From an uncultured Candidatus Saccharibacteria bacterium (GTDB taxonomy: Bacteria > Patescibacteriota > Saccharimonadia > CAILAD01 > GCA-016700035): 64,000 nt of DNA. Within the stretch, counting starts at the first letter, position 1. Each line of letters begins with the position of its first letter. Shown piece by piece: positions 21,510 through 54,459 of this stretch. Made by a program: the position numbers and the translations under genes. A model generated the notes under the pieces. The model saw nothing but the letters and a program-made list of their open reading frames with translations. It was not told the DNA's origin and did no database searches. The stretch spans positions 1,465-65,464 of the forward strand of contig CAYVVS010000002.1 in NCBI GenBank assembly GCA_964454845.1. Reading direction: 5' to 3'.

Positions 21510-22592
21510 TTACGGAGCCGTGACGGCTCCGCTGTTGGTCTGGTCACCGACGTTCGTGTCCATGTCGGGGTTTGAAGCCCCGGCACTTCCACCGGTGGTG
21601 GTGCCAGACGGACCGTCCGTCGCGCCCGAAGGCGTGGTGACACCTGATCCAGTACCAGTTCCGGGGGTGCCGAACGGAGTGGCTCGGTAGGGATCGGCGC
21701 CGTTCCGAGTTGCTTCCGCGTCTCGGTTCTGCTGGTTGGTCACCGCCTCGGCGTTACCGGGAGTGTAGCCCGGCGTAGCAGCCTGCGGGTTGGAGCCAAC
21801 GGGATCCATGTCCGGACCGGAGTCCGGGGTGCCGCAGTAGAGACCGGTCTGACCCGCGCACTTGCCCGAAGGCGTCGTGGTTGGGGTTGTGTGCCGACCA
21901 GACTTACCTGGTGTCACCGGCCGCGAGGGCTGGTTCGACGCAGGCGGAGCACCCTTGCCGGGCACGCTCGGTGGGAAGTTCTGCTCCACGGGCTGGTAGC
22001 CACAGTTGAGCTTGAACTGCTTCACGGTCCCATCGGGGAACGTGAAGCGGATCACCTTGAACGGCGCGGCTTCAACCGGGACCTGGTAGATCTCGGGGAT
22101 GGTTCTCCCCTTGTCCTCCATGTCCATGGTCTGGTACGCACCGCTCATCTCGACGATCTCCACCTTGATGGCCTCGTTGAGGCGCGCCTGGAAGCGCATC
22201 TCGCTGAGAGCCCAAGCATCCGGGTTCGACATGAGGTCGACGGTCTTCTGCACTCGGGTCGGCGCATCCGAGAACTCGTTGAAGAGGTACTCGGAGTCAC
22301 CCACGAGGAGCGCGGCGTCAGAGCAGCGTCGCGAGGCGAAGTCCGCCTGCGTTGCTGCCACATTGGCCGGATCCTCCGGAGCGGCGGGGCCGAACTGGTT
22401 CCCCTCCGTGAAACGGGAGAAGAAGATCTGGTTCGTGCCACACGCAGCCGGAGTGGTTGAGGCGGTCGGATCGGCACCCGCATCGGGCGGGCCGACGATC
22501 ACCTTGATGACCGGGAAGATCAGCAGCAACAGCGCAGCAGCGCCGATGATGCCGAAGAAGAACCTCTGCTGAGCAGAGTTGGGAGCGCTCAT
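21510..22592 (-). CDS. Island gene A: N-terminally anchored, Cys-containing exoprotein with Pro/Thr/Gly-rich tail (360 aa), function unknown
   Basis: GGAGG 6 nt upstream of the ATG. TM anchor FFFGIIGAAALLLLIFPVIKVIV, five Cys in the ectodomain, low-complexity C-terminus. High GC3. Confidence 0.7.
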   Translation of the reverse strand: MSAPNSAQQRFFFGIIGAAALLLLIFPVIKVIVGPPDAGADPTASTTPAACGTNQIFFSRFTEGNQFGPAAPEDPANVAATQADFASRRCSDAALLVGDSEYLFNEFSDAPTRVQKTVDLMSNPDAWALSEMRFQARLNEAIKVEIVEMSGAYQTMDMEDKGRTIPEIYQVPVEAAPFKVIRFTFPDGTVKQFKLNCGYQPVEQNFPPSVPGKGAPPASNQPSRPVTPGKSGRHTTPTTTPSGKCAGQTGLYCGTPDSGPDMDPVGSNPQAATPGYTPGNAEAVTNQQNRDAEATRNGADPYRATPFGTPGTGTGSGVTTPSGATDGPSGTTTGGSAGASNPDMDTNVGDQTNSGAVTAP

Positions 22593-22725
22593 CGCGCACC
22601 TCCTTGTGGGTCGGTGTCGCGAATGCGACTCTTGATGGATGTTCAGGTTCTGGTTCTGACATCAAGGACGCACTACTGTTTTACCAGCTATGGGTACTTA
22701 AGGCCAGAATAAAACCAAAATGTGT

Positions 22726-22753
22726 CTTCCTGGGGCCCGAAGGCCCCAGGAAG
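22726..22753 (-). terminator. Intrinsic terminator of island gene B
   Basis: Perfect 12-bp stem cttcctggggcc / ggccccaggaag. UUCG loop on the transcribed strand, followed by acacattttggttttatt. Confidence 0.7.
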
Positions 22754-22760
22754 CAAGGGG

Positions 22761-23537
22761 TCAGTTCGCCGAAGCGGTGGCTGCAGCAGCAGCCTGCGTG
22801 GTCGAGAACTGGCTCCCAGAGAGAGGGAGTGATGGGGGTGTGGTCCCCACAGCCTGCAGCGGCTGGTCGGCCGGAGGCGGAGGCGGCGTGACAGCAGCGA
22901 CCGGCTGGTCGGCCGGGGGCTGCGGTGCCACCACCACGTTTCCACTCGCCGAGGCGGAGGAACGCGTGATGATGCTGCGCCCGTTGCCAGGCAGGCAGGT
23001 CAGCACGATGGCAACGATGGCACCGATGAGCACCGCCCAGAACCATTGGTTCTGCGTGGTGAACCGATCGCCTCGCACCCACTCCACTCCTTCGATGAAG
23101 AAGTAGACGACGAGCGCGGTGATGACCCCACCGATGAGGGGGATCCAGCCGTTGGCTGCCTCCAACCGCGCGATCGCGGTGGCGTGAGCGTTCGAGTGGA
23201 CCTGCAGCCCTTCGATGCGACTGCCCAGACCGAGAACGTTGTTCTCGACGGTTCCGAGCCGCTGGCTGAACTGCTGGAGTTCCCCCCTGAAGCCGGAGAC
23301 CAGGCCCCTGACGTCTTCACGTTCGCGATTGAGCTCCTCGAGCTCTTCACGCACCATGCCCTTGAACCACTCACTGGTGGCGGCATCGAGCTGGACCTTA
23401 CGGTCCTGGACGGCAGCGTCGAGACGCTGCAGGTTGTCCTCCGCCTCCTTGAGGCGACGGGTGATGCGCTGCATCTCGGCACTGCGAGCCGCAGCGTTGG
23501 TCACCGACATCTGTCGGTCTCGTGCTGTTCTGTTCAT
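22761..23537 (-). CDS. Island gene B: coiled-coil protein with two TM helices and Pro-rich tail (258 aa), function unknown
   Basis: GGGAGGGG SD just upstream of the ATG. About 125 aa heptad-like N-terminus, TMs WIPLIGGVITALVVYFFIEGV and WFWAVLIGAIVAIVLTCLPG, and a repeated PPADQP(V/L) tail. Confidence 0.7.
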   Translation of the reverse strand: MNRTARDRQMSVTNAAARSAEMQRITRRLKEAEDNLQRLDAAVQDRKVQLDAATSEWFKGMVREELEELNREREDVRGLVSGFRGELQQFSQRLGTVENNVLGLGSRIEGLQVHSNAHATAIARLEAANGWIPLIGGVITALVVYFFIEGVEWVRGDRFTTQNQWFWAVLIGAIVAIVLTCLPGNGRSIITRSSASASGNVVVAPQPPADQPVAAVTPPPPPADQPLQAVGTTPPSLPLSGSQFSTTQAAAAATASAN

Positions 23538-23603
23538 ATCCCCTCCCGGGGTGTGTTGTGCCGGGGTTTTTCAACACCCGGGTTGAGGTACGAATACCGT
23601 TGC

Positions 23604-23632
23604 ATAATAGCATAAAATGCATAATTTTGCAA
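23604..23632 (-). promoter_or_regulatory. Predicted promoter of island gene B inside an AT-rich spacer
   Basis: Minus strand TTGCAA-17 nt-TATTAT. The spacer line 23581-23640 is 19/60 G+C. Confidence 0.45.
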
Positions 23633-23685
23633 TAGTTTTATGTAAAGTCAATATGCTTATGCCAAAGAAAGTTAACAAAAAAATA

Positions 23686-23712
23686 GGGCGACCTGGTGTA
23701 CCCAGGTCGCCC
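23686..23712 (-). terminator. Intrinsic terminator of island gene C
   Basis: Perfect 11-bp stem gggcgacctgg / ccaggtcgccc with a 5-nt loop. On the transcribed strand it is followed by tattttttt. Confidence 0.75.
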
Positions 23713-23721
23713 AGATGAGCA

Positions 23722-25296
23722 TCAAGCAGCGCTGTGCTGCCCGTATTCCAGAAGGAGACGTCGATCCGCCTCCTCACGCTGCTCTTGAGGAGTCCGATAT
23801 GCCCAGTGCTCAACCGGGTCATCATCTTCGGCAACCCGCTGCATCATGGCGACAACTACCTCTTCTGGCAAGTTCGCCAGAATGGACTCGTCCGACTTCC
23901 GCTTACCGCGACTCGCGTCACGATCTGCACTGTCAGCTGGTCCATCCGCCTGAGGCTGCTGAGCGTCCGACTCTTCGACTGGATCGCTGGACTGCCGCCC
24001 TGCAGCTGGAGCCTTCGGCGAGGGGCGCATGGCCGCTCGGCCACCACCCCGCACCACATGGCGCTCCGGCTCGGGAGCATCACTGCTGCTGACGGTACGA
24101 CGACCCTCACTCGTCCGGACCACAGGAACCGGCTGAGTAGGAGGTCCTTCGAGCTCCTTCGGAACACCGCTGTTTGCAACACCCGTCTCGGGCTCGCTTG
24201 CAGCCGTGTCATCCGTAGTACTGCTCGCCGGCTCCTCGGATGCGGGTCGAGGCGGAAGCCCCGGTACCGCTGTGCGCTTGGCACTCCGTGGGTGACGGCG
24301 AGAACTTGAGCTCTGCTGACGTCGGTAGTGAGTCTCCGAAGGCCAGGTGAAGTCCTCCAGGTTCTCCTGGATGGTTTCCTTGCCCTCGAAAACTCGCAGG
24401 GTGGACCGAACCGCAATCCGGTAGTACCACACCAGCTCCCGCAAATCGGGATTGGCTGCGATCTCATCCCTGGTGGGCGAGACAGGTACGTCCTGCCCCT
24501 CCTCACGAGGAAGCTGGAACAGGCGCTTTTCGGCCTCTTCAGGCGACTGATTCAGTGCCTGATACAGAGCGTAGCCCTGCTCGTAGACCGCGAGAGCAAG
24601 CGCCCAGACTGCAGCATCGGCTTCGTCGCGCGTGCCGCTTTGGCGAGCTGCGACAGAGGCTTCGAGCAACGGTCGCAGAGCCTCGCGATAGGAGTCGAGC
24701 TGACGCTCTCCATCCACGGGAGGTGTCGGTGCGGCCGAAGCAGCTTCGGGCTCCGGAGCCGGAGGTGTCTCGCCGGTATCGACTGGGGCACCGTCGGGTG
24801 CCGAAGCACTCGGAGAGTCCTGATCGAAGGGCAGCGAGCCAGCGCCATCAGCGTCGTCCGGCTCGGGCTGTTCACCAATGAACCGGTCGACGGCGGAGGC
24901 AAGCGTGTTCGGAACGAACTGGTTGCCGTTGTGAATGGCTTGCCTCTCCTCGCCCTCTTCGAGATCCTCGTTGAGGATCTCCTGCAAGAGCTCGAGAGCT
25001 GACGCCTCATCCAGCGACGGATCGGCCTCCATCAACCTTGCGGTCAGATGGGAAGCCCGAAGCTGAATCCTGCGAGGCGCAGGTGCTGCAGCCGCCTCGT
25101 CGGCGGCGTCATCTGCGGGATCTGCGAGATGTTCTTCGTCGGCCACGATGGCCTCCTGTTCTCCGGCAACACCGGGGTTGGGGCCATCATCGGCCGGGGT
25201 TGTACCACCACACGTGGCGGCGACTTCATCTGGATCGAGCTGGGAGAATTCATCCAGGCTCATTCCGGACCTGCCTTCACTCATGCTGTACCTCAT
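23722..25296 (-). CDS. Island gene C: acidic, largely low-complexity protein (524 aa; no TM, no recognised motif)
   Basis: Longest frame of several overlapping high-GC frames. It is co-directional with its neighbours and bracketed by the promoter and terminator above. The start may be the fifth codon (ATG 25284, GAGG upstream). TGA stop. Confidence 0.6.
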   Translation of the reverse strand: MRYSMSEGRSGMSLDEFSQLDPDEVAATCGGTTPADDGPNPGVAGEQEAIVADEEHLADPADDAADEAAAAPAPRRIQLRASHLTARLMEADPSLDEASALELLQEILNEDLEEGEERQAIHNGNQFVPNTLASAVDRFIGEQPEPDDADGAGSLPFDQDSPSASAPDGAPVDTGETPPAPEPEAASAAPTPPVDGERQLDSYREALRPLLEASVAARQSGTRDEADAAVWALALAVYEQGYALYQALNQSPEEAEKRLFQLPREEGQDVPVSPTRDEIAANPDLRELVWYYRIAVRSTLRVFEGKETIQENLEDFTWPSETHYRRQQSSSSRRHPRSAKRTAVPGLPPRPASEEPASSTTDDTAASEPETGVANSGVPKELEGPPTQPVPVVRTSEGRRTVSSSDAPEPERHVVRGGGRAAMRPSPKAPAAGRQSSDPVEESDAQQPQADGPADSADRDASRGKRKSDESILANLPEEVVVAMMQRVAEDDDPVEHWAYRTPQEQREEADRRLLLEYGQHSAA

Positions 25297-49017: not shown

Positions 49018-50079
49018 ATGATTGATCAAGCCTCTATCGACAAACTCAAAAACCGCCTCGACGAACTCGAGGTAGAACTCTCGCGCCCAGAAATCTATGC
49101 CAGCCCCAAAGCTGCTGGTTTGGTACACGAACAGCGCGACTTGCAAACCAGACTCGAACTATTTGAAGATGTGCAGAAAACCGAGACCGATCTAGAAGAT
49201 GCCAAAGCCCTGGCGAACGACGCTGAAATGGGCGAATTGGCGCGCGCTGAGATTCCAGAGCTCGAATCCAAACTAGAAGGCCTGCAAGATAAGGTACGTG
49301 CCGCGCTCGTACCAACTGATCCGAACGATAATAAAACTGCCATCATTGAAATTCGCGCCGGGGCCGGCGGCGACGAAAGCTCACTCTTTGCTGGCGAGCT
49401 AGCCCGTATGTATGCCCGATTCGCTGAAGCTCACGGCCTAAAACTTACTATGCTCTCAGAAAGCCCCAATGAAGTAGGCGGGTATAAAGAAGTAATTATC
49501 GAAGCCTCTGGGCCAGAAGCCTATGGTCAACTTAAATATGAATCTGGAGTCCACCGTGTGCAGCGTGTTCCAGCTACCGAAAGCCAGGGCCGTACCCATA
49601 CCTCCACCGTCACAGTGGCAGTTTTGCCAGAAGCCGAGGAAACTGAGCTGGAGATTGCCGATAACGAAGTCCGTATCGATGTGTATCGCTCATCTGGCAA
49701 TGGTGGCCAGAGTGTGAATACTACTGATTCGGCCGTACGCCTTACTCACTTGCCGACGGGCATTGTGGTAACCTGTCAGGATGAAAAGAGCCAGATCAAA
49801 AACCGCGCGAAGGCTATGAACGTCTTACGCTCTCGCCTGCTCGCTATGGAAGAAGAAAAACGCCGTAAAGAACTTGGCGATGCTCGTTTGAGTCAAATTG
49901 GCACCGGAGATCGCTCTGAAAAAATCCGCACCTATAACTTCCCTCAAGATCGAATCACCGACCACCGTATTGGTTTTACCACTCATGGGCTCACTCGCTT
50001 TATGGATGGTGGACTTGATGAGCACCATGAAGCCCTGAAACAAGCTGATATCGACCAAGCCCTCGCCGAGCAAGCATGA
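49018..50079 (+). CDS. prfA: Peptide chain release factor 1
   Basis: PAT tripeptide ([10 protein letters not shown]) and GGQ ([16 protein letters not shown]). The TGA stop overlaps the prmC ATG (ATGA). Confidence 0.95.
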
Positions 50080-50888
50080 TACTTCGTGACTTCCTCACAA
50101 ACGCTATCGCCACGCTAAAAACTGCGGGTATAGAAGGTGCTCAAACCGATGCCGAAGTAATTCTGGCACACACACTAGAAAAAGACCGAGCTTGGCTTTT
50201 AGCACATGACGGAACCGAGTTAAGTACCGAGCAGCTAAAACAAGCGCAACAACTTGTGCAAAAACGCGCCGAGCGCATCCCGATGAGCTACGTTTTGGGC
50301 ATGCGAGAATTTGCTGGACTGGAGTTCAAAATAGACGACCGTGCGTTAACGCCACGCGTTGAAACCGAAACGATTGTTGTCGAAGTTTCCAAGCGTGCCC
50401 AGAAAGACGCTCGCGTACTCGACATAGGCACCGGTTCTGGCGCCATGGCAATTGCGCTCAAGCATTTGCGACCCGACCTGCACGTTACGGCCAGCGAAGT
50501 GAGCTCCGAAGCTCTCGAGCTAGCTCGCGAAAATGCAGAAGCTCTTCTCGGCAACGACACAAAAGTCGAATTCGTCAAATCTGACCTTTTTGAGAACATT
50601 GACGGCAAGTTCGACATTATTGTTGCGAATCTGCCATACGTCACTCGCACCATGGAACTAATGCCCGAAGTCCAAAACGAGCCAGATGTGGCGTTGTTTG
50701 GCGGCGCCGACGACGGCCTAGATTTGTACCGAAAATTCTTCACCGAGCTCCCAAACTACATTGCTGCCAATGCGCAAATCTGGACCGAATCTGACCCCTG
50801 GCAGCAAAACGAGATCATTAAACTCGCTCATGACTGTGGTCTCACAAAAATTTTTCAAGATTATTTCATCCTCGGCCTCGAGAAATAA
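50076..50888 (+). CDS. prmC: Release-factor glutamine N5-methyltransferase
   Basis: [15 protein letters not shown] (SAM motif) and IVANLPYV (NPPY-type motif). Translationally coupled to prfA. Confidence 0.9.
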
Positions 50889-50900
50889 TCACTGCAACTA

Positions 50901-50929
50901 TTGACTTTTCTTAATACTTATGCTATTAT
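50901..50929 (+). promoter_or_regulatory. Predicted promoter of island-2 unit 1
   Basis: TTGACT-17 nt-TATTAT immediately after the prmC stop. Confidence 0.55.
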
Positions 50930-51137
50930 AATCAGCATAATCTTTTTTAAAAGATTAGTACCTTCTAAACACTTCCTTATTTCCTTCCTCTTGATGCCTT
51001 TTAAGAAATCGGGCTCGAGACAACCGTAAGTACCCCCGTTTAGTTACTCTTACTGTTTGGATCCCGATTTTTAGCTATGGATCGAGGAAGGGAGATGCAG
51101 CACCCTTGGCAAATCGCCAAAGCTGCAGGAGTACACC

Positions 51138-51377
51138 ATGAAGCTTCTCAAGAGCCTGTTCGGCGATCGAGATGATTGCGCCGCAATGGCATGCATCACG
51201 ATGGTCTACTTGCCCTTCGCAGTCATGTTCACCTACGGCTCCGTCCGTTTCGAGATGCAGTTCATCGGCCACCCGCTGATCAGCTGGATTCTCATCGCCC
51301 ACTGTGTCATCGTCTATTGCTTCGGCATGGTCTCTGGCGCTCGTTGGCTTGCACTACAGCTCATCTACTCACCGTAA
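51138..51377 (+). CDS. Island-2 small membrane protein (79 aa, two TM)
   Basis: AGGAG 6 nt upstream. TMs AAMACITMVYLPFAVMFTYGSV and LISWILIAHCVIVYCFGMVSGA. High GC3. Confidence 0.55.
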   Translation: MKLLKSLFGDRDDCAAMACITMVYLPFAVMFTYGSVRFEMQFIGHPLISWILIAHCVIVYCFGMVSGARWLALQLIYSP

Positions 51378-51390
51378 GGAGGTGATACAC

Positions 51391-51588
51391 ATGCCGAGAA
51401 ATCGGTACCGTCGACGACGACAGCTCAGCAGGGTCCTCCTGCCTGTCGCAGTCGGCCTGCTAGCGGCCTGCGCACTGGTCTTCGTCCTCGCCATCGAGGG
51501 TGTCCCCGTGCCAGAACCGGTGCTGTTTACGGCTTTCGCGATCTTCGTCGTGATTGCGCTCACAGCAACAGCCGCTTCGGTGGTCTAG
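51391..51588 (+). CDS. Island-2 small membrane protein (65 aa, Arg-rich N-terminus, two TM)
   Basis: AAGGAGG 8 nt upstream; this SD overlaps the stop codon of the preceding ORF (ccgTAAGGAGGtg). MPRNRYRRRRQLSRVLLPVAVGLLAACALVFVLAI... Confidence 0.55.
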   Translation: MPRNRYRRRRQLSRVLLPVAVGLLAACALVFVLAIEGVPVPEPVLFTAFAIFVVIALTATAASVV

Positions 51589-51778
51589 CATTCACCTCTC
51601 CCCCGGAGGTAAAATCGATTGCAAAATCGAAGTGTCGCAAGACGCGAGGGAGGCGCTTTAGCAGTCAGCGATAAGTACACAATCTCGATACCGAGATCGC
51701 GGTACAACTGCTCTTACAAGCACCCGTTTTCCTAACTTTAGGATTTATATGGGTGCTTTTCCTTGTCTAGGAAATATA

Positions 51779-51807
51779 TTGACTTTATTGTTATATTATT
51801 GTAATAT
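51779..51807 (+). promoter_or_regulatory. Predicted promoter of island-2 unit 2
   Basis: TTGACT-17 nt-TAATAT in a spacer of about 27% G+C. Confidence 0.55.
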
Positions 51808-51841
51808 ATTTTTACCGTACCTTCGAACGAAAGATTCTCAC

Positions 51842-52303
51842 ATGCTCACCATCAAGCAGAGACTTCTGCTCATGCTTGCCCTATTGGTCTTCTCCGTCTC
51901 CCTCATGGGGTCGGCAGTGACCTTCGAACTGGCTCGAGAGACTCAATCGAGAGCGACCATCAACACCGTGTACATCCTCGACGTATTCGGTGGTGCTTCC
52001 GGAGTCCTGATCGCAGCCTACATCGCGCTGCGAGGTTTCTGCAGTGAGCCCCTCCTCCCAGAGTTCCCTCTCTGGATGAAGCTCTGCGCCTACTACGCAG
52101 TCTGCATGGTTGCAGCTGGAACGCTGAGCTTCGTATTCACAGGCGACACATGGCAACAACGAGTTGCCATGCAAGAGCTCGAACAGACCAGTAACTACAC
52201 GGCAATCAATGCGATGATGGTCGTCATCGGCCTCGCCAACTTCGGTTGCCTGTGGCTCATCGACCGGCACGATGCCAAGAGCGATCACAGCCTCAAGTCC
52301 TGA
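51842..52303 (+). CDS. Island-2 four-TM membrane protein (153 aa), function unknown
   Basis: Track ORF 51749..52303 trimmed to ATG 51842 (MLTIKQRLLLMLALLVFSVSLMG...), where GC-rich coding composition begins. Four hydrophobic spans. Confidence 0.6.
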   Translation: MLTIKQRLLLMLALLVFSVSLMGSAVTFELARETQSRATINTVYILDVFGGASGVLIAAYIALRGFCSEPLLPEFPLWMKLCAYYAVCMVAAGTLSFVFTGDTWQQRVAMQELEQTSNYTAINAMMVVIGLANFGCLWLIDRHDAKSDHSLKS

Positions 52304-52358
52304 TACGCGAGCTGCGCACGGTAAGCCAACAAGGCCCAAAAAGTACCGTGCAAACCAA

Positions 52359-52388
52359 CACCCACCCGAACATTAGTTCGGGTGGGTG
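52359..52388. terminator. Intrinsic terminator between island 2 and convergent htrA
   Basis: Perfect 13-bp stem cacccacccgaac / gttcgggtgggtg, 4-nt loop, followed by ctcttcttttt. Confidence 0.8.
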
Positions 52389-52407
52389 CTCTTCTTTTTA
52401 GATGATG

Positions 52408-53622
52408 TTATTCGGTAGCTTGCGGCGTCTCTTCAAGCTTCACATCTACAGTCTGCTCTTTGCCGTCGCGCCAATACGTTACCTTTACCGTATCACCAGG
52501 GCTAAAGCCTACTACCACGCTCTGCAGTGGGTTATCGCGGGTAATCTCTTTATCGTTAATCTTGGTAATAATATCTCCATCTTTCAGGCCTGCCTTTGCA
52601 GCGGGAGATCCAGAAATTACCGCAATTGTTTGCTCATCCCCACGCAACAGCGCACCCTGCTTTACTGGCAAATTGTTGCGCTCAGCAAAGCTATCAGTGA
52701 GCATCACGTAGCGCACACCAATGTATGGACGCACAATCACTCCGCGAGCCTTTACTGAATCCAGCGCACCCTTTACCTGGTTAATCGGAATTGCAAAACC
52801 AATGTTTTGCGCATTCTCACCACTTGCGACAGCCGTATTAATACCAATAATTTGACCGTCGATATTTAATAGCGGTCCGCCCGAGTTCCCTGGGTTAATG
52901 GCTGCATCGGTCTGAAACAAGTTGGTAAGTGTCTCGGTGTTGCCCTGCCCATCAGATGCCTGTACCGGGCGTTGCTTGCCAGAAATTACACCAGTTGTAA
53001 CCGTATTGCTGTACTCACCCAAGGCATTACCAATGGCGATTGCGCGCTGTCCCACTTCCACCTTATCTGAATCGCCAAGCTCGGCGGCCGGAAGCCCACT
53101 GGCCTCTACTTTTACGAAGGCGATATCGTTTGATGAATCAAGTGCCAAAATTTTACCTTCAAACTGTTTGCCATCGGTATTCGTCACCGTGACCGTACTA
53201 GCACCTTGCACCACATGCTTATTCGTAAGAATAAGGCCATCAGCACTTACAATCACCCCCGTACCCGCACCTTGTTGCTGCTGAGCTCCAAAGAAGCTCT
53301 GCACAGTGGTTGAGGTATTAATTGAAACGACACTTGGTCCAACCTTTTTGACTAAATCAATGGTTGCTGAGTTTTCCTGCAATGTTACTTGCTTAGATTG
53401 TTCGATAGCACTTTGCTGCCCGGCCGGCATGAAGCGTACAAAGAGCGCTGCCCCCAACACACCCGCAACAAATGCTAGTAGTACGGTTATTCCCCAACCT
53501 GGTCCTCCACTCGACTTGGCTGCGGGTTTTTTTGTAGCGCCAAAATTAATCGGTGGCGCCGATGATACACTGCTCACATTACTCGTTTTTTCTTTTTTGA
53601 CTGGTTTCGATTCTTCTTGCAT
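52408..53622 (-). CDS. htrA: HtrA/DegP-family serine protease with PDZ domain
   Basis: N-terminal TM. TNKHVV (His), DIAFVKV (Asp), GNSGGPLLN (Ser). C-terminal PDZ. Confidence 0.9.
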   Translation of the reverse strand: MQEESKPVKKEKTSNVSSVSSAPPINFGATKKPAAKSSGGPGWGITVLLAFVAGVLGAALFVRFMPAGQQSAIEQSKQVTLQENSATIDLVKKVGPSVVSINTSTTVQSFFGAQQQQGAGTGVIVSADGLILTNKHVVQGASTVTVTNTDGKQFEGKILALDSSNDIAFVKVEASGLPAAELGDSDKVEVGQRAIAIGNALGEYSNTVTTGVISGKQRPVQASDGQGNTETLTNLFQTDAAINPGNSGGPLLNIDGQIIGINTAVASGENAQNIGFAIPINQVKGALDSVKARGVIVRPYIGVRYVMLTDSFAERNNLPVKQGALLRGDEQTIAVISGSPAAKAGLKDGDIITKINDKEITRDNPLQSVVVGFSPGDTVKVTYWRDGKEQTVDVKLEETPQATE

Positions 53623-53679: not shown

Positions 53680-54459
53680 CTACATGCCAGTCATAACGAG
53701 CAGCACTATGAGTAAAAACGCACATATCATACCATATTCAACTACCAGCTTTTTGGAAAGTTTACGTTGCGAATGAAGTAAGAGCATACTGCCCCACGCA
53801 TACGCAATAACCGCCAAAAATAGCGCCGTGCGCGAAACCACCAAGAGCGTAGACGGAAGCGTGTAAAACACCAGAGCCACGCTGCCCAGTAACAACATCT
53901 CGACTGCAATCAGCGACCACACTGCCGCCAAGAATGAATTATGATACCCCACGCGCTCCAGCCAATAATGCACAATTATATAGTTAACAACCCAAGCTAA
54001 GATAATTGCGACAAATCCGGCTGTAACATCTTGGTTGAGCAGGAGCACCCAGGTAGTATTTACCAGCAATAGCACGATTGCTGTAAAACCGGTTTGCGCA
54101 TGCGCCGCTTGAGTCCTGAACTGCATGAGCAAATAGCGAATTTGCAAAAGGAATACGACGATAAGGAACGTTGCCTGCTGCCAAAGCGGCACATCGTACA
54201 CCAGTTGCAAGAGACCGATGTAGAGCTGACCAAACAACACGAGAATTACCGGCTCTAGTGAACGCGTAAACACAATACGAGCCGAGCGCTGCACTAAAAG
54301 GCGCGCAACCGTACTAATTGTAACGGCTACGGCGGCTACGGCCGCAAGCCACGCCCAAACACCACCCAGCATAGTAAGGGCCAGTGCTACCGATAGGCCC
54401 AAAATATGCGCGATCAATATGCGCTGCGAAGGTGTGAGAAATTTCCCCCTACGAGCCAC
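53680..54459 (-). CDS. Polytopic membrane protein (259 aa), function unknown
   Basis: About 8 hydrophobic spans. No motif recognised. Confidence 0.55.
   Translation of the reverse strand: MARRGKFLTPSQRILIAHILGLSVALALTMLGGVWAWLAAVAAVAVTISTVARLLVQRSARIVFTRSLEPVILVLFGQLYIGLLQLVYDVPLWQQATFLIVVFLLQIRYLLMQFRTQAAHAQTGFTAIVLLLVNTTWVLLLNQDVTAGFVAIILAWVVNYIIVHYWLERVGYHNSFLAAVWSLIAVEMLLLGSVALVFYTLPSTLLVVSRTALFLAVIAYAWGSMLLLHSQRKLSKKLVVEYGMICAFLLIVLLVMTGM

Follow-up and report, generated by a model that had tools for sequence, protein, structure and literature searches.

A site-fixed, modular locus between prmC and htrA of Saccharibacteria combines two undescribed structured RNAs with exchangeable genes for small membrane proteins

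We analyzed the locus between prmC and htrA in a 64-kb stretch of DNA (hereafter the window; contig CAYVVS010000002.1) from an uncultured member of the Saccharibacteria (TM7). These bacteria are ultra-small epibionts with reduced genomes, and to our knowledge their regulatory RNAs and small proteins are almost unexplored. The window has about 49% G+C, and the closest relatives of its PrmC all come from metagenome-assembled genomes (MAGs) of Saccharibacteria or Patescibacteria. The locus consists of two independent transcription units, is dispensable, is restricted to one Saccharibacteria clade and is fixed at the prmC-htrA junction. An earlier reading of the sequence (the original prediction) had described it as a high-G+C island encoding three small proteins with several transmembrane (TM) helices, and had overlooked two structured non-coding RNAs of unit 1: leader RNA A, which precedes the first open reading frames (ORFs), and RNA domain B, which follows them. 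The locus and its flanks comprise the following features, in which SD denotes a Shine-Dalgarno sequence.

49018-50888, plus strand: prfA and prmC, the left flank of the locus
50901-50929, plus strand: promoter 1 (TTGACT, 17 nt, TATTAT, with TG upstream; 10/12 in the promoter scan)
50936-51137, plus strand: leader RNA A, supported by folding, conservation and covariation
50938-50957, plus strand: 5'-terminal hairpin of A
about 50960-50990, plus strand: pyrimidine (CU) boxes of A, resembling anti-SD sequences
50983-50990 paired with 51084-51091, plus strand: helix P1 of A (CCUUCCUC/GAGGAAGG)
51005-51071, plus strand: P2 of A, a long irregular hairpin with the conserved C-rich apical loop ACCCCCG
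51097-51126, plus strand: 3' hairpin of A, just before the SD of ORF79
51095-51175, plus strand: upstream ORF of 26 codons (MQHPWQIAKAAG...), overlapping the start codon of ORF79
51138-51377, plus strand: ORF79, a 2-TM protein with conserved HCVxxYCFGM in the second helix and a conserved RFE.Q loop
51391-51588, plus strand: ORF65, preceded by a strong SD (AAGGAGGUGA) and encoding a 2-TM protein rich in Arg at its N-terminus
51586-51711, plus strand: 3' structured RNA domain B, starting at the ORF65 stop codon
51718-51764, plus strand: terminator of unit 1 (AAGCACCCGU ... AUGGGUGCUU, then a U-run), its stem kept and its loop variable in all relatives
51779-51807, plus strand: promoter 2 from the promoter scan (TTGACT, 17 nt, TAATAT), with a leader of about 30 nt behind it
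51842-52303, plus strand: ORF153, a 4-TM orphan protein with conserved motifs PLxPEFPLWMKL and LEQxSN
52359-52398, plus strand: terminator of unit 2, a perfect 13-bp hairpin (52359-52388) with a T-run, facing the 3' end of htrA
52408-53622, minus strand: htrA, the right flank, convergent with the locus

Much of this anatomy had been called correctly. Our scan found both promoters at the coordinates of the original prediction, and we confirmed the ORFs of 79, 65 and 153 aa, their two, two and four hydrophobic segments by hydropathy, and the perfect 13-bp hairpin with its T-run. The ORFs encode small multi-TM orphan proteins, and the statement that they carry no enzyme motif holds, as does the report of neither integrase nor flanking repeats at the island, for which we scanned the ORFs, families and repeats of the window. 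Neither a tRNA nor a tmRNA lies in the island. The arrangement recurs in independent NCBI, ENA, JGI and Logan assemblies, and the locus is thus not an assembly artefact.

In an alignment of relatives, which we designate by handles such as L003, A and B are the best-conserved sequences of the whole prfA-htrA stretch. Leader A is 88-90% identical to its counterparts in L008, L009, L059 and L060 and 84% identical to that in L003, and B reaches 89-95% and 80% in the same comparisons; the corresponding values are 81-86% for prfA, 77-87% for htrA and 73-79% for prmC. Synonymous divergence (pS) of these flanking genes lies between 0.41 and 0.80, near saturation, and neutral non-coding DNA should therefore be barely alignable. 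Because identity falls sharply in the spacer of promoter 1 (68-83%, with the hexamers kept) and in terminator 1 (72-75%), the conservation speaks for constraint on the RNA rather than for a young block of DNA. The RNAs, rather than the proteins, are the most conserved parts of the locus and would carry its most strongly conserved function.

Both RNAs fold with a z-score of -4.7 against shuffled controls. For A, the RNAalifold consensus of 10 sequences contains 38 pairs; both partners have changed in five of these, and L063 adds compensatory changes from C-G to A-U in P1 and from U-A to C-G in the inner hairpin. As a structured 5' untranslated region (UTR), A shows covariation and stands upstream of five types of downstream genes, which we call its cargo. 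Domain B comprises five or six helices, of which two end in GNRA tetraloops, and contains the invariant segments CACCUCUCCCCCGGAGGUAAAAUCG and GCGAGGGAGGCGC as well as a conserved, C-rich apical loop (UCCCCCG) on helix H1; 98% of its alignment cells are paired, and both partners have changed in five pairs spread over four helices, compared with 0-2 compensatory pairs in controls in which the partner column was slid by 1-3 positions. A GCGAU/AUCGC helix considered for B was rejected, being broken in L003 and L059; a competing GUAY/RUAC helix covaries. Coding potential was ruled out for both RNAs by indels between species that are not multiples of three.

Neither RNA matched a family in Rfam, whether in a scan of the 64-kb window with Rfam 15 at gathering thresholds or in a scan of 50800-52500 at E<=10; chance-level matches to lysM-TM7 (E = 2.5, minus strand) and, on the terminator, to twister-sister (E = 7) were rejected. 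Covariance models find A and B as single copies in the window and find no copy in L011 or L012. A scan of JGI metagenomes with the core of A returned one match only, L048, and we therefore regard the element as rare. A full-text search of the literature returned no work on the locus or on comparable structured RNAs of Saccharibacteria.

The upstream ORF at the end of A may be translated, judging from its sequence. Its SD-like sequence is the 3' strand of P1 (GAGGAAGG), three nucleotides before its ATG; the ATG is kept in seven lineages (the window, L009, L060, L008, L059, L003 and L064), and in L059 and L003 the stop codon overlaps the ATG of the cargo as ATGA. Transcription of unit 1 is predicted to start at about 50936. 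Both promoters are kept at equivalent positions in L009, L060 and L003, and the pattern TTGACTTT-N13-17-TANNAT occurs at these two sites only in the 64 kb, where 0.14 would be expected.

Every contig that contains homologues has the same flanks, namely rpmE, prfA and prmC to one side of the locus and htrA with genes for a 259-aa membrane protein and a LytR-family protein to the other, and the same prmC-htrA site is occupied in about ten Saccharibacteria lineages in modular form. Both units lie between prmC and htrA in L009 and L060, unit 1 only in L008, L059 and the truncated L062, and unit 2 only in L011, where it is accompanied by promoter 2; L001, whose contig starts within ORF65, contains B and unit 2. 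In L010 and L048 all ORFs are deleted and promoter 1 and the leader are fused to the last ~20 nt of B. L012 is empty, with the prmC and htrA stop codons about 8 nt apart, which answers for at least one relative whether the two genes are adjacent elsewhere. The block is accessory and dispensable.

The deletion variant spans 6825-7100 in L010 and 1573-1810 in L048, where A is joined after GAGGAAAGGACAT to the final stub of B (CGCGGTACAACTGC), apparently via a short GAGAT/GACAT homology, and where promoter, A and terminator are kept. Between these two loci, 4/249 positions differ in promoter 1, A and the stub, compared with 25/271 third codon positions in prmC (Fisher p = 1.6e-4). Since A is conserved in these ORF-less loci, it has some function without cargo.

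The slot behind A holds different genes in different lineages: ORF79 and ORF65 in the window, L008, L009 and L060; an unrelated 73-aa ORF and ORF65 in L059; ORFs of 39 and 59 aa and ORF65 in L064; a single unrelated 72-aa ORF in L002-L007; and, in L063, which has no B, a divergent 141-aa member of the ORF153 family directly behind A. Cargo is thus swapped among at least five unrelated families of small membrane proteins (39-141 aa). By hydropathy, the three window ORFs, the 72-aa cargo of L003 and the 73-aa cargo of L059 are small and hydrophobic with two or four segments; those of L064 and L063 read as hydrophobic by sequence and were not scored. The G+C content at third codon positions (GC3) of cargo is 0.70-0.85 nearly throughout, in genomes with an htrA GC3 of 0.39-0.45; the exception is the 73-aa ORF of L059, at 0.57.

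The three ORFs of the window keep intact frames with in-frame indels across five to six species, and their ratios of nonsynonymous to synonymous substitution (dN/dS) lie at 0.18-0.5 except for one ORF65 pair: 0.28-0.48 for ORF79, 0.31-0.84 for ORF65 (0.84 being that pair) and 0.18-0.43 for ORF153. These patterns of substitution mark them as real, coding genes under moderate purifying selection. Synonymous divergence is low in unit 1, at 0.15-0.32 for ORF65 and 0.15-0.45 for ORF79 and ORF65 together, which could reflect exchange between lineages or RNA-level constraint inside the ORFs; a unit 1 block that is simply young is argued against by the divergence of the promoter spacer and terminator 1. 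Among 5.8 billion cluster representatives, ORF79 falls into three clusters, i.e., two others, and ORF65 into six, five of them relatives, all from the same clade and locus. For the three ORFs, as for two alternative cargos, no family in Pfam, PHROGs, PADLOC or NCBIfam scored above threshold. Matches of ORF65 to mycobacterial PspM/Rv2743c, in its N-terminal two-TM region (E = 0.01-0.03, 14.5-15.9 bits; cut-offs 27.7 and 80), and to TraX (E = 4.5e-4, 20 bits; cut-off 100) were rejected as probably compositional, arising from TM-rich regions; we mention them because the hosts known for Saccharibacteria belong to the Actinobacteria.

ORF153, the gene of unit 2, is equally confined, with four clusters among the 5.8 billion cluster representatives and four proteins when 1.84 billion representatives were searched in full with an HMMER profile. 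Its pS of 0.52-0.65 is close to that of the flanks, and its GC3, 0.72 in the window, is 0.67-0.76 in every orthologue. Profile searches yielded no consistent Pfam match and nothing in the PDB, nine family members scanned singly gave only scattered, inconsistent matches to TM proteins, which we discarded, and an AlphaFold2 model shows four long helices at low confidence (predicted local distance difference test, pLDDT, 51). In L063 (1-760), an A-type leader directly drives the 141-aa divergent family member, with neither an upstream-ORF ATG nor B. The 4-TM family may originally have been a cargo of leader A.

We interpret unit 1 as a native platform of promoter plus leader that gates the translation of swappable small membrane proteins by masking their ribosome-binding sites (RBSs), a reading to which we give about even credence. 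A near-consensus promoter would drive the structured leader A of ~200 nt, whose CU boxes and P1 would mask the purine-rich SDs of the upstream ORF and of the cargo genes, so that translation of the downstream genes would be gated post-transcriptionally. The genes in the slot behind A would be interchangeable and GC3-rich and would encode very small integral membrane proteins (39-141 aa), and tight gating would be called for because these proteins are presumably membrane-active. In most lineages the transcript would end with B and the terminator. Through its invariant GAGGGAGG, B may fold back to the CU boxes of A and compete for them; unit 2 would be a separately promoted gene for a 4-TM orphan protein. 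Consistent with masking, a 9-nt box of L063 (ACUCCUUAU) is exactly complementary to the SD of the cargo there (AUAAGGAGU) and overlaps the 5' strand of P1. Minimum free energy (MFE) folds of whole transcripts join a CU box of A to GAGGGAGG of B in five of the six species, and in two of the six they join box 2 to the SD of ORF65.

Such a platform would resemble the leaders that sequester an SD, such as riboswitch expression platforms and RNA thermometers, in that A is a conserved, structured 5' UTR directly before genes, with boxes complementary to SDs, and in that the box of L063 can pair with either P1 or the SD in mutually exclusive fashion. It differs from them in having no Rfam family and no known ligand or signal, in being kept where there is no ORF (L010/L048) and in being accompanied, at the 3' end, by another conserved RNA domain. 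The core of A, moreover, is a single long irregular hairpin and not an aptamer of the junction or pseudoknot type.

Several points weigh against this interpretation. It takes as observed the anatomy of the locus, the ranking of conservation, the compensatory changes, the swapping of cargo, the purifying selection on the ORFs and the pattern of presence and absence; every regulatory step that it adds, namely SD masking, coupling to the upstream ORF and the interaction of A with B, is a prediction. Complementarity between SD and anti-SD segments is generic purine-pyrimidine pairing that any folding program would predict, and covariation cannot test the SD pairing because the segments are almost invariant. 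The covariation in A and B rests on 8-10 closely related sequences and gives modest support, and for the eight-sequence alignment of A the controls are moderately convincing, with 7-37 of 500 shuffles reaching the observed values. L063 lacks the upstream ORF, and it lacks B, which is therefore not obligatory for A to work. Gating alone leaves the low synonymous divergence of ORF65 and ORF79 unexplained, and a trans-acting RNA would account better than a purely cis-acting leader for the fact that A is conserved in a lineage without ORFs.

That last point leads to the alternative that we regard as possible, if doubtful: unit 1 would primarily be a gene for a regulatory RNA of dual function, in which A and B act in trans, their C-rich loops and CU boxes targeting the purine-rich ribosome-binding sites of other mRNAs, and the small ORFs are passengers. 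The layout would be that of Staphylococcus aureus RNAIII, which encodes hld and is likewise a long transcript in which structured domains at the 5' and 3' ends are conserved, hairpin loops are rich in C, a gene for a small membrane-active peptide is embedded and the RNA parts are better conserved than the ORF. The likeness is one of layout only: the two share no homology in sequence or structure, targets are not known, and the cargo here is multi-TM and often comprises several genes. That A and B are more conserved than any nearby coding sequence, that cargo is replaceable, that A, promoter and terminator are kept under purifying selection in L010 and L048 and that both RNAs have conserved C-rich apical loops (ACCCCCG in A, on P2, and UCCCCCG in B, on H1) all agree with an action in trans. 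However, this reading comes with neither a known nor a predicted target, and both the C-rich loops and the CU boxes find obvious partners in cis. Purifying selection also acts on the cargo ORFs themselves, B is absent from L063, and the comparison of L010 with L048 rests on 4 versus 25 substitutions.

We offer a bolder extension just as tentatively. A and B might be two halves of an undescribed Saccharibacteria RNA device that interact from 5' to 3' end through the CU boxes and GAGGGAGG, and possibly in trans through the C-rich loops. With small membrane-protein genes exchanged between lineages around these RNAs, unit 1 would then combine a dual-function regulatory RNA with a platform for cargo in an epibiotic bacterium of the candidate phyla radiation (CPR), and might be tuned to interaction with the high-G+C actinobacterial host.

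A type I toxin-antitoxin module of the hok/mok or AapA1 kind is a less probable reading of unit 1. The mRNA of a toxin would be kept inert by fold-back of its 3' onto its 5' end and by sequestration of the SD, with a leader ORF coupled to the toxin gene, and would be activated by processing of the 3' end. Compared with hok/mok/sok and AapA1/IsoA1, the locus has in common small hydrophobic products, a coupled leader ORF, a masked SD, a predicted 5'-3' interaction and dispensability. More specifically, its cargo is small and hydrophobic, the 5' UTR is long and structured with an SD-like strand tied up in P1, the start of the cargo is overlapped or abutted by the upstream ORF (as ATGA in L059 and L003), folds predict pairing of the conserved 3' domain with the 5' CU boxes in the five of six species mentioned above, and presence of the locus is patchy. 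What sets it apart is, first, the antisense partner: a consensus scan, the only search made for it, found no promoter-like site on the minus strand inside the island in the window, L009, L060 or L003, which leaves no candidate antisense antitoxin in four species. Second, the proteins tend to be larger than typical toxins, which have a single TM helix and fewer than 60 aa: the cargo of 65-79 aa in question has two TM helices and is often arranged in two or three cistrons, cargo across lineages measures 39-79 aa with mostly two TM helices, and a 141-aa 4-TM protein can also occupy the slot. Third, cargo is interchangeable, and there is a single copy per window.

The original prediction had taken the island for a second foreign insertion and had regarded its small hydrophobic proteins as typical of functions borne by phages or plasmids. 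What stands is that the block is accessory and that its codon composition is foreign to the backbone. Its counts of G+C were exact (42/60 at 51421-51480 and 16/60 at 51781-51840), and the ORFs are indeed raised to 56-63% G+C, but the island as a whole has 51.4% compared with 48.9% in the window, and the term high-G+C island calls for qualification. The true compositional anomaly is in GC3, which is 0.75 in ORF79, 0.70 in ORF65 and 0.72 in ORF153 against a backbone mean of 0.477 (sd 0.083, range 0.34-0.55); in the 64-kb window, values above 0.62 occur only in the ORFs of this island and of another, island 1. In GC3, then, composition deviates from that of the host genome, as in a genomic island. 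A discrete recent insertion is not what we find, and no link to phage, plasmid, defence or Pfam families emerged.

We accordingly judge it unlikely, slightly more so than the toxin-antitoxin module, that the whole block is a recent horizontal insertion from a phage, plasmid or host that brought in genes for exclusion, immunity, holin-like or membrane-toxin functions. A GC3 of 0.70-0.75 against 0.48 in the backbone, common to island 1, would be expected of such an insertion, as would the patchy presence with an empty site (unit 1 in L008, unit 2 in L011, a remnant in L010, nothing in L012), unrelated cargo variants that are all GC3-rich but one, as if from a high-G+C pool, and the remnant of an insertion sequence (IS) that adjoins the locus in L002-L005; known hosts of Saccharibacteria, as a matter of general knowledge, are high-G+C Actinobacteria. 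On the other hand, site, promoters and leader are the same in about ten lineages, promoters and A are AT-rich with a backbone-like composition, and no integrase, att repeats or mobility genes lie in the window, where we found neither mobility machinery nor scars, the IS remnant being confined to the L002-L005 lineage. We found no DNA match in phages or plasmids (blastn in 'distant' mode) and none in viral contigs (pattern scans). The three window ORFs had no PHROG or PADLOC match, the best being a non-significant match to a holin family (E = 0.077) for one cargo variant, the 72-aa ORF of L003. Nor did searches of the 5.8 billion cluster representatives or the 1.84 billion representatives turn up a homologue outside the clade that could point to a donor.

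The divergence of ORF153 also speaks against a recent import. Its pS is like that of the flanks, in contrast to ORF79 and ORF65, whose pS lies below them, yet its GC3 has not decayed. As GC3 stays at 0.65-0.85 in almost all orthologues and cargos despite their divergence, the composition is maintained and is not the fading signature of an import; and since it has been maintained over saturating synonymous divergence in a 48% G+C genome, the richness in GC3 is no simple relic of one. The locus shares with genomic islets and hypervariable slots a fixed place between core genes, variable presence, atypical composition and orphan genes, and differs from them in that it has no integrase, tRNA or att sites, that its native expression signals are older than the cargo and that its compositional bias has been maintained across deep synonymous divergence. 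Neither is it an integron, as we found no integrase and no repeated element common to cassette boundaries, A and B being single-copy. The locus is old, site-fixed and modular, its core is a pair of undescribed structured RNAs, and it is not a fresh foreign insertion.

The IS remnant lies between prmC and promoter 1 (914-1878 in L003, and also in L002, L004 and L005) and consists of a 199-aa HTH_23 ORF and a 96-aa ORF that resembles, by eye only, an integrase-core (rve-type) fragment. The prmC-proximal edge can thus accept insertions.

That the ORFs are spurious, the raised G+C reflecting only a long structured non-coding RNA or an assembly chimera, is very improbable: the ORFs are short orphans and the full transcript folds well (z-score -5.9), but their frames are intact with in-frame indels in 5-6 species at a dN/dS of 0.2-0.5, strong SDs stand at the correct spacing, the hydrophobic segments are conserved and the arrangement occurs in many independent assemblies.

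Undescribed non-coding segments that are better conserved than the adjacent essential genes here frame a slot of swapped, tiny membrane proteins. If the RNAs gate or deliver these proteins, the locus would offer a compact and tractable entry point, with promoter, leader, cargo and 3' domain within ~0.9 kb, and gating, if true, would be of use for studying post-transcriptional control and the function of small membrane proteins in CPR bacteria. If it is only an ordinary leader with orphan genes, its interest would be local. The conservation pattern and the swapping of cargo appear striking to us, within the limits of a narrow clade, covariation on about ten sequences and a function that we only infer from sequence.

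The original prediction had also likened the construction of the locus to that of island 1, and the likeness holds for the GC3 excess and for shared promoter strings. Island 1 (21510-25296, minus strand) comprises three orphan ORFs of 360, 258 and 524 aa with a GC3 of 0.63-0.78, none of which has a Pfam family above threshold, separated by AT-rich spacers with promoter- and terminator-like sites. Its middle promoter region (23604-23653) has the exact strings TATTGACTTT and TATGCTATTAT in common with promoter 1, which suggests a common type of promoter for the GC3-rich accessory units of both islands. Flanking or att-like repeats were found in neither island, each being scanned separately by a search that made no comparison between them.

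Two further observations concern the right-hand end of the locus. Hairpins equivalent to the unit 2 terminator are present in L060 and L003, and upstream of this terminator, at 52313-52351, we noticed by eye a second hairpin (GCACGGUA ... UACCGUGC), the stem of which, again by eye, is also found in L009 with a different loop. Directly downstream of htrA lies the gene of the 259-aa multi-TM protein (53680-54459, minus strand), which belongs to no Pfam family and keeps the same position in all related loci beside genes for LytR_cpsA_psr and signal peptidase, and these neighbors give the surroundings of the locus an envelope theme.

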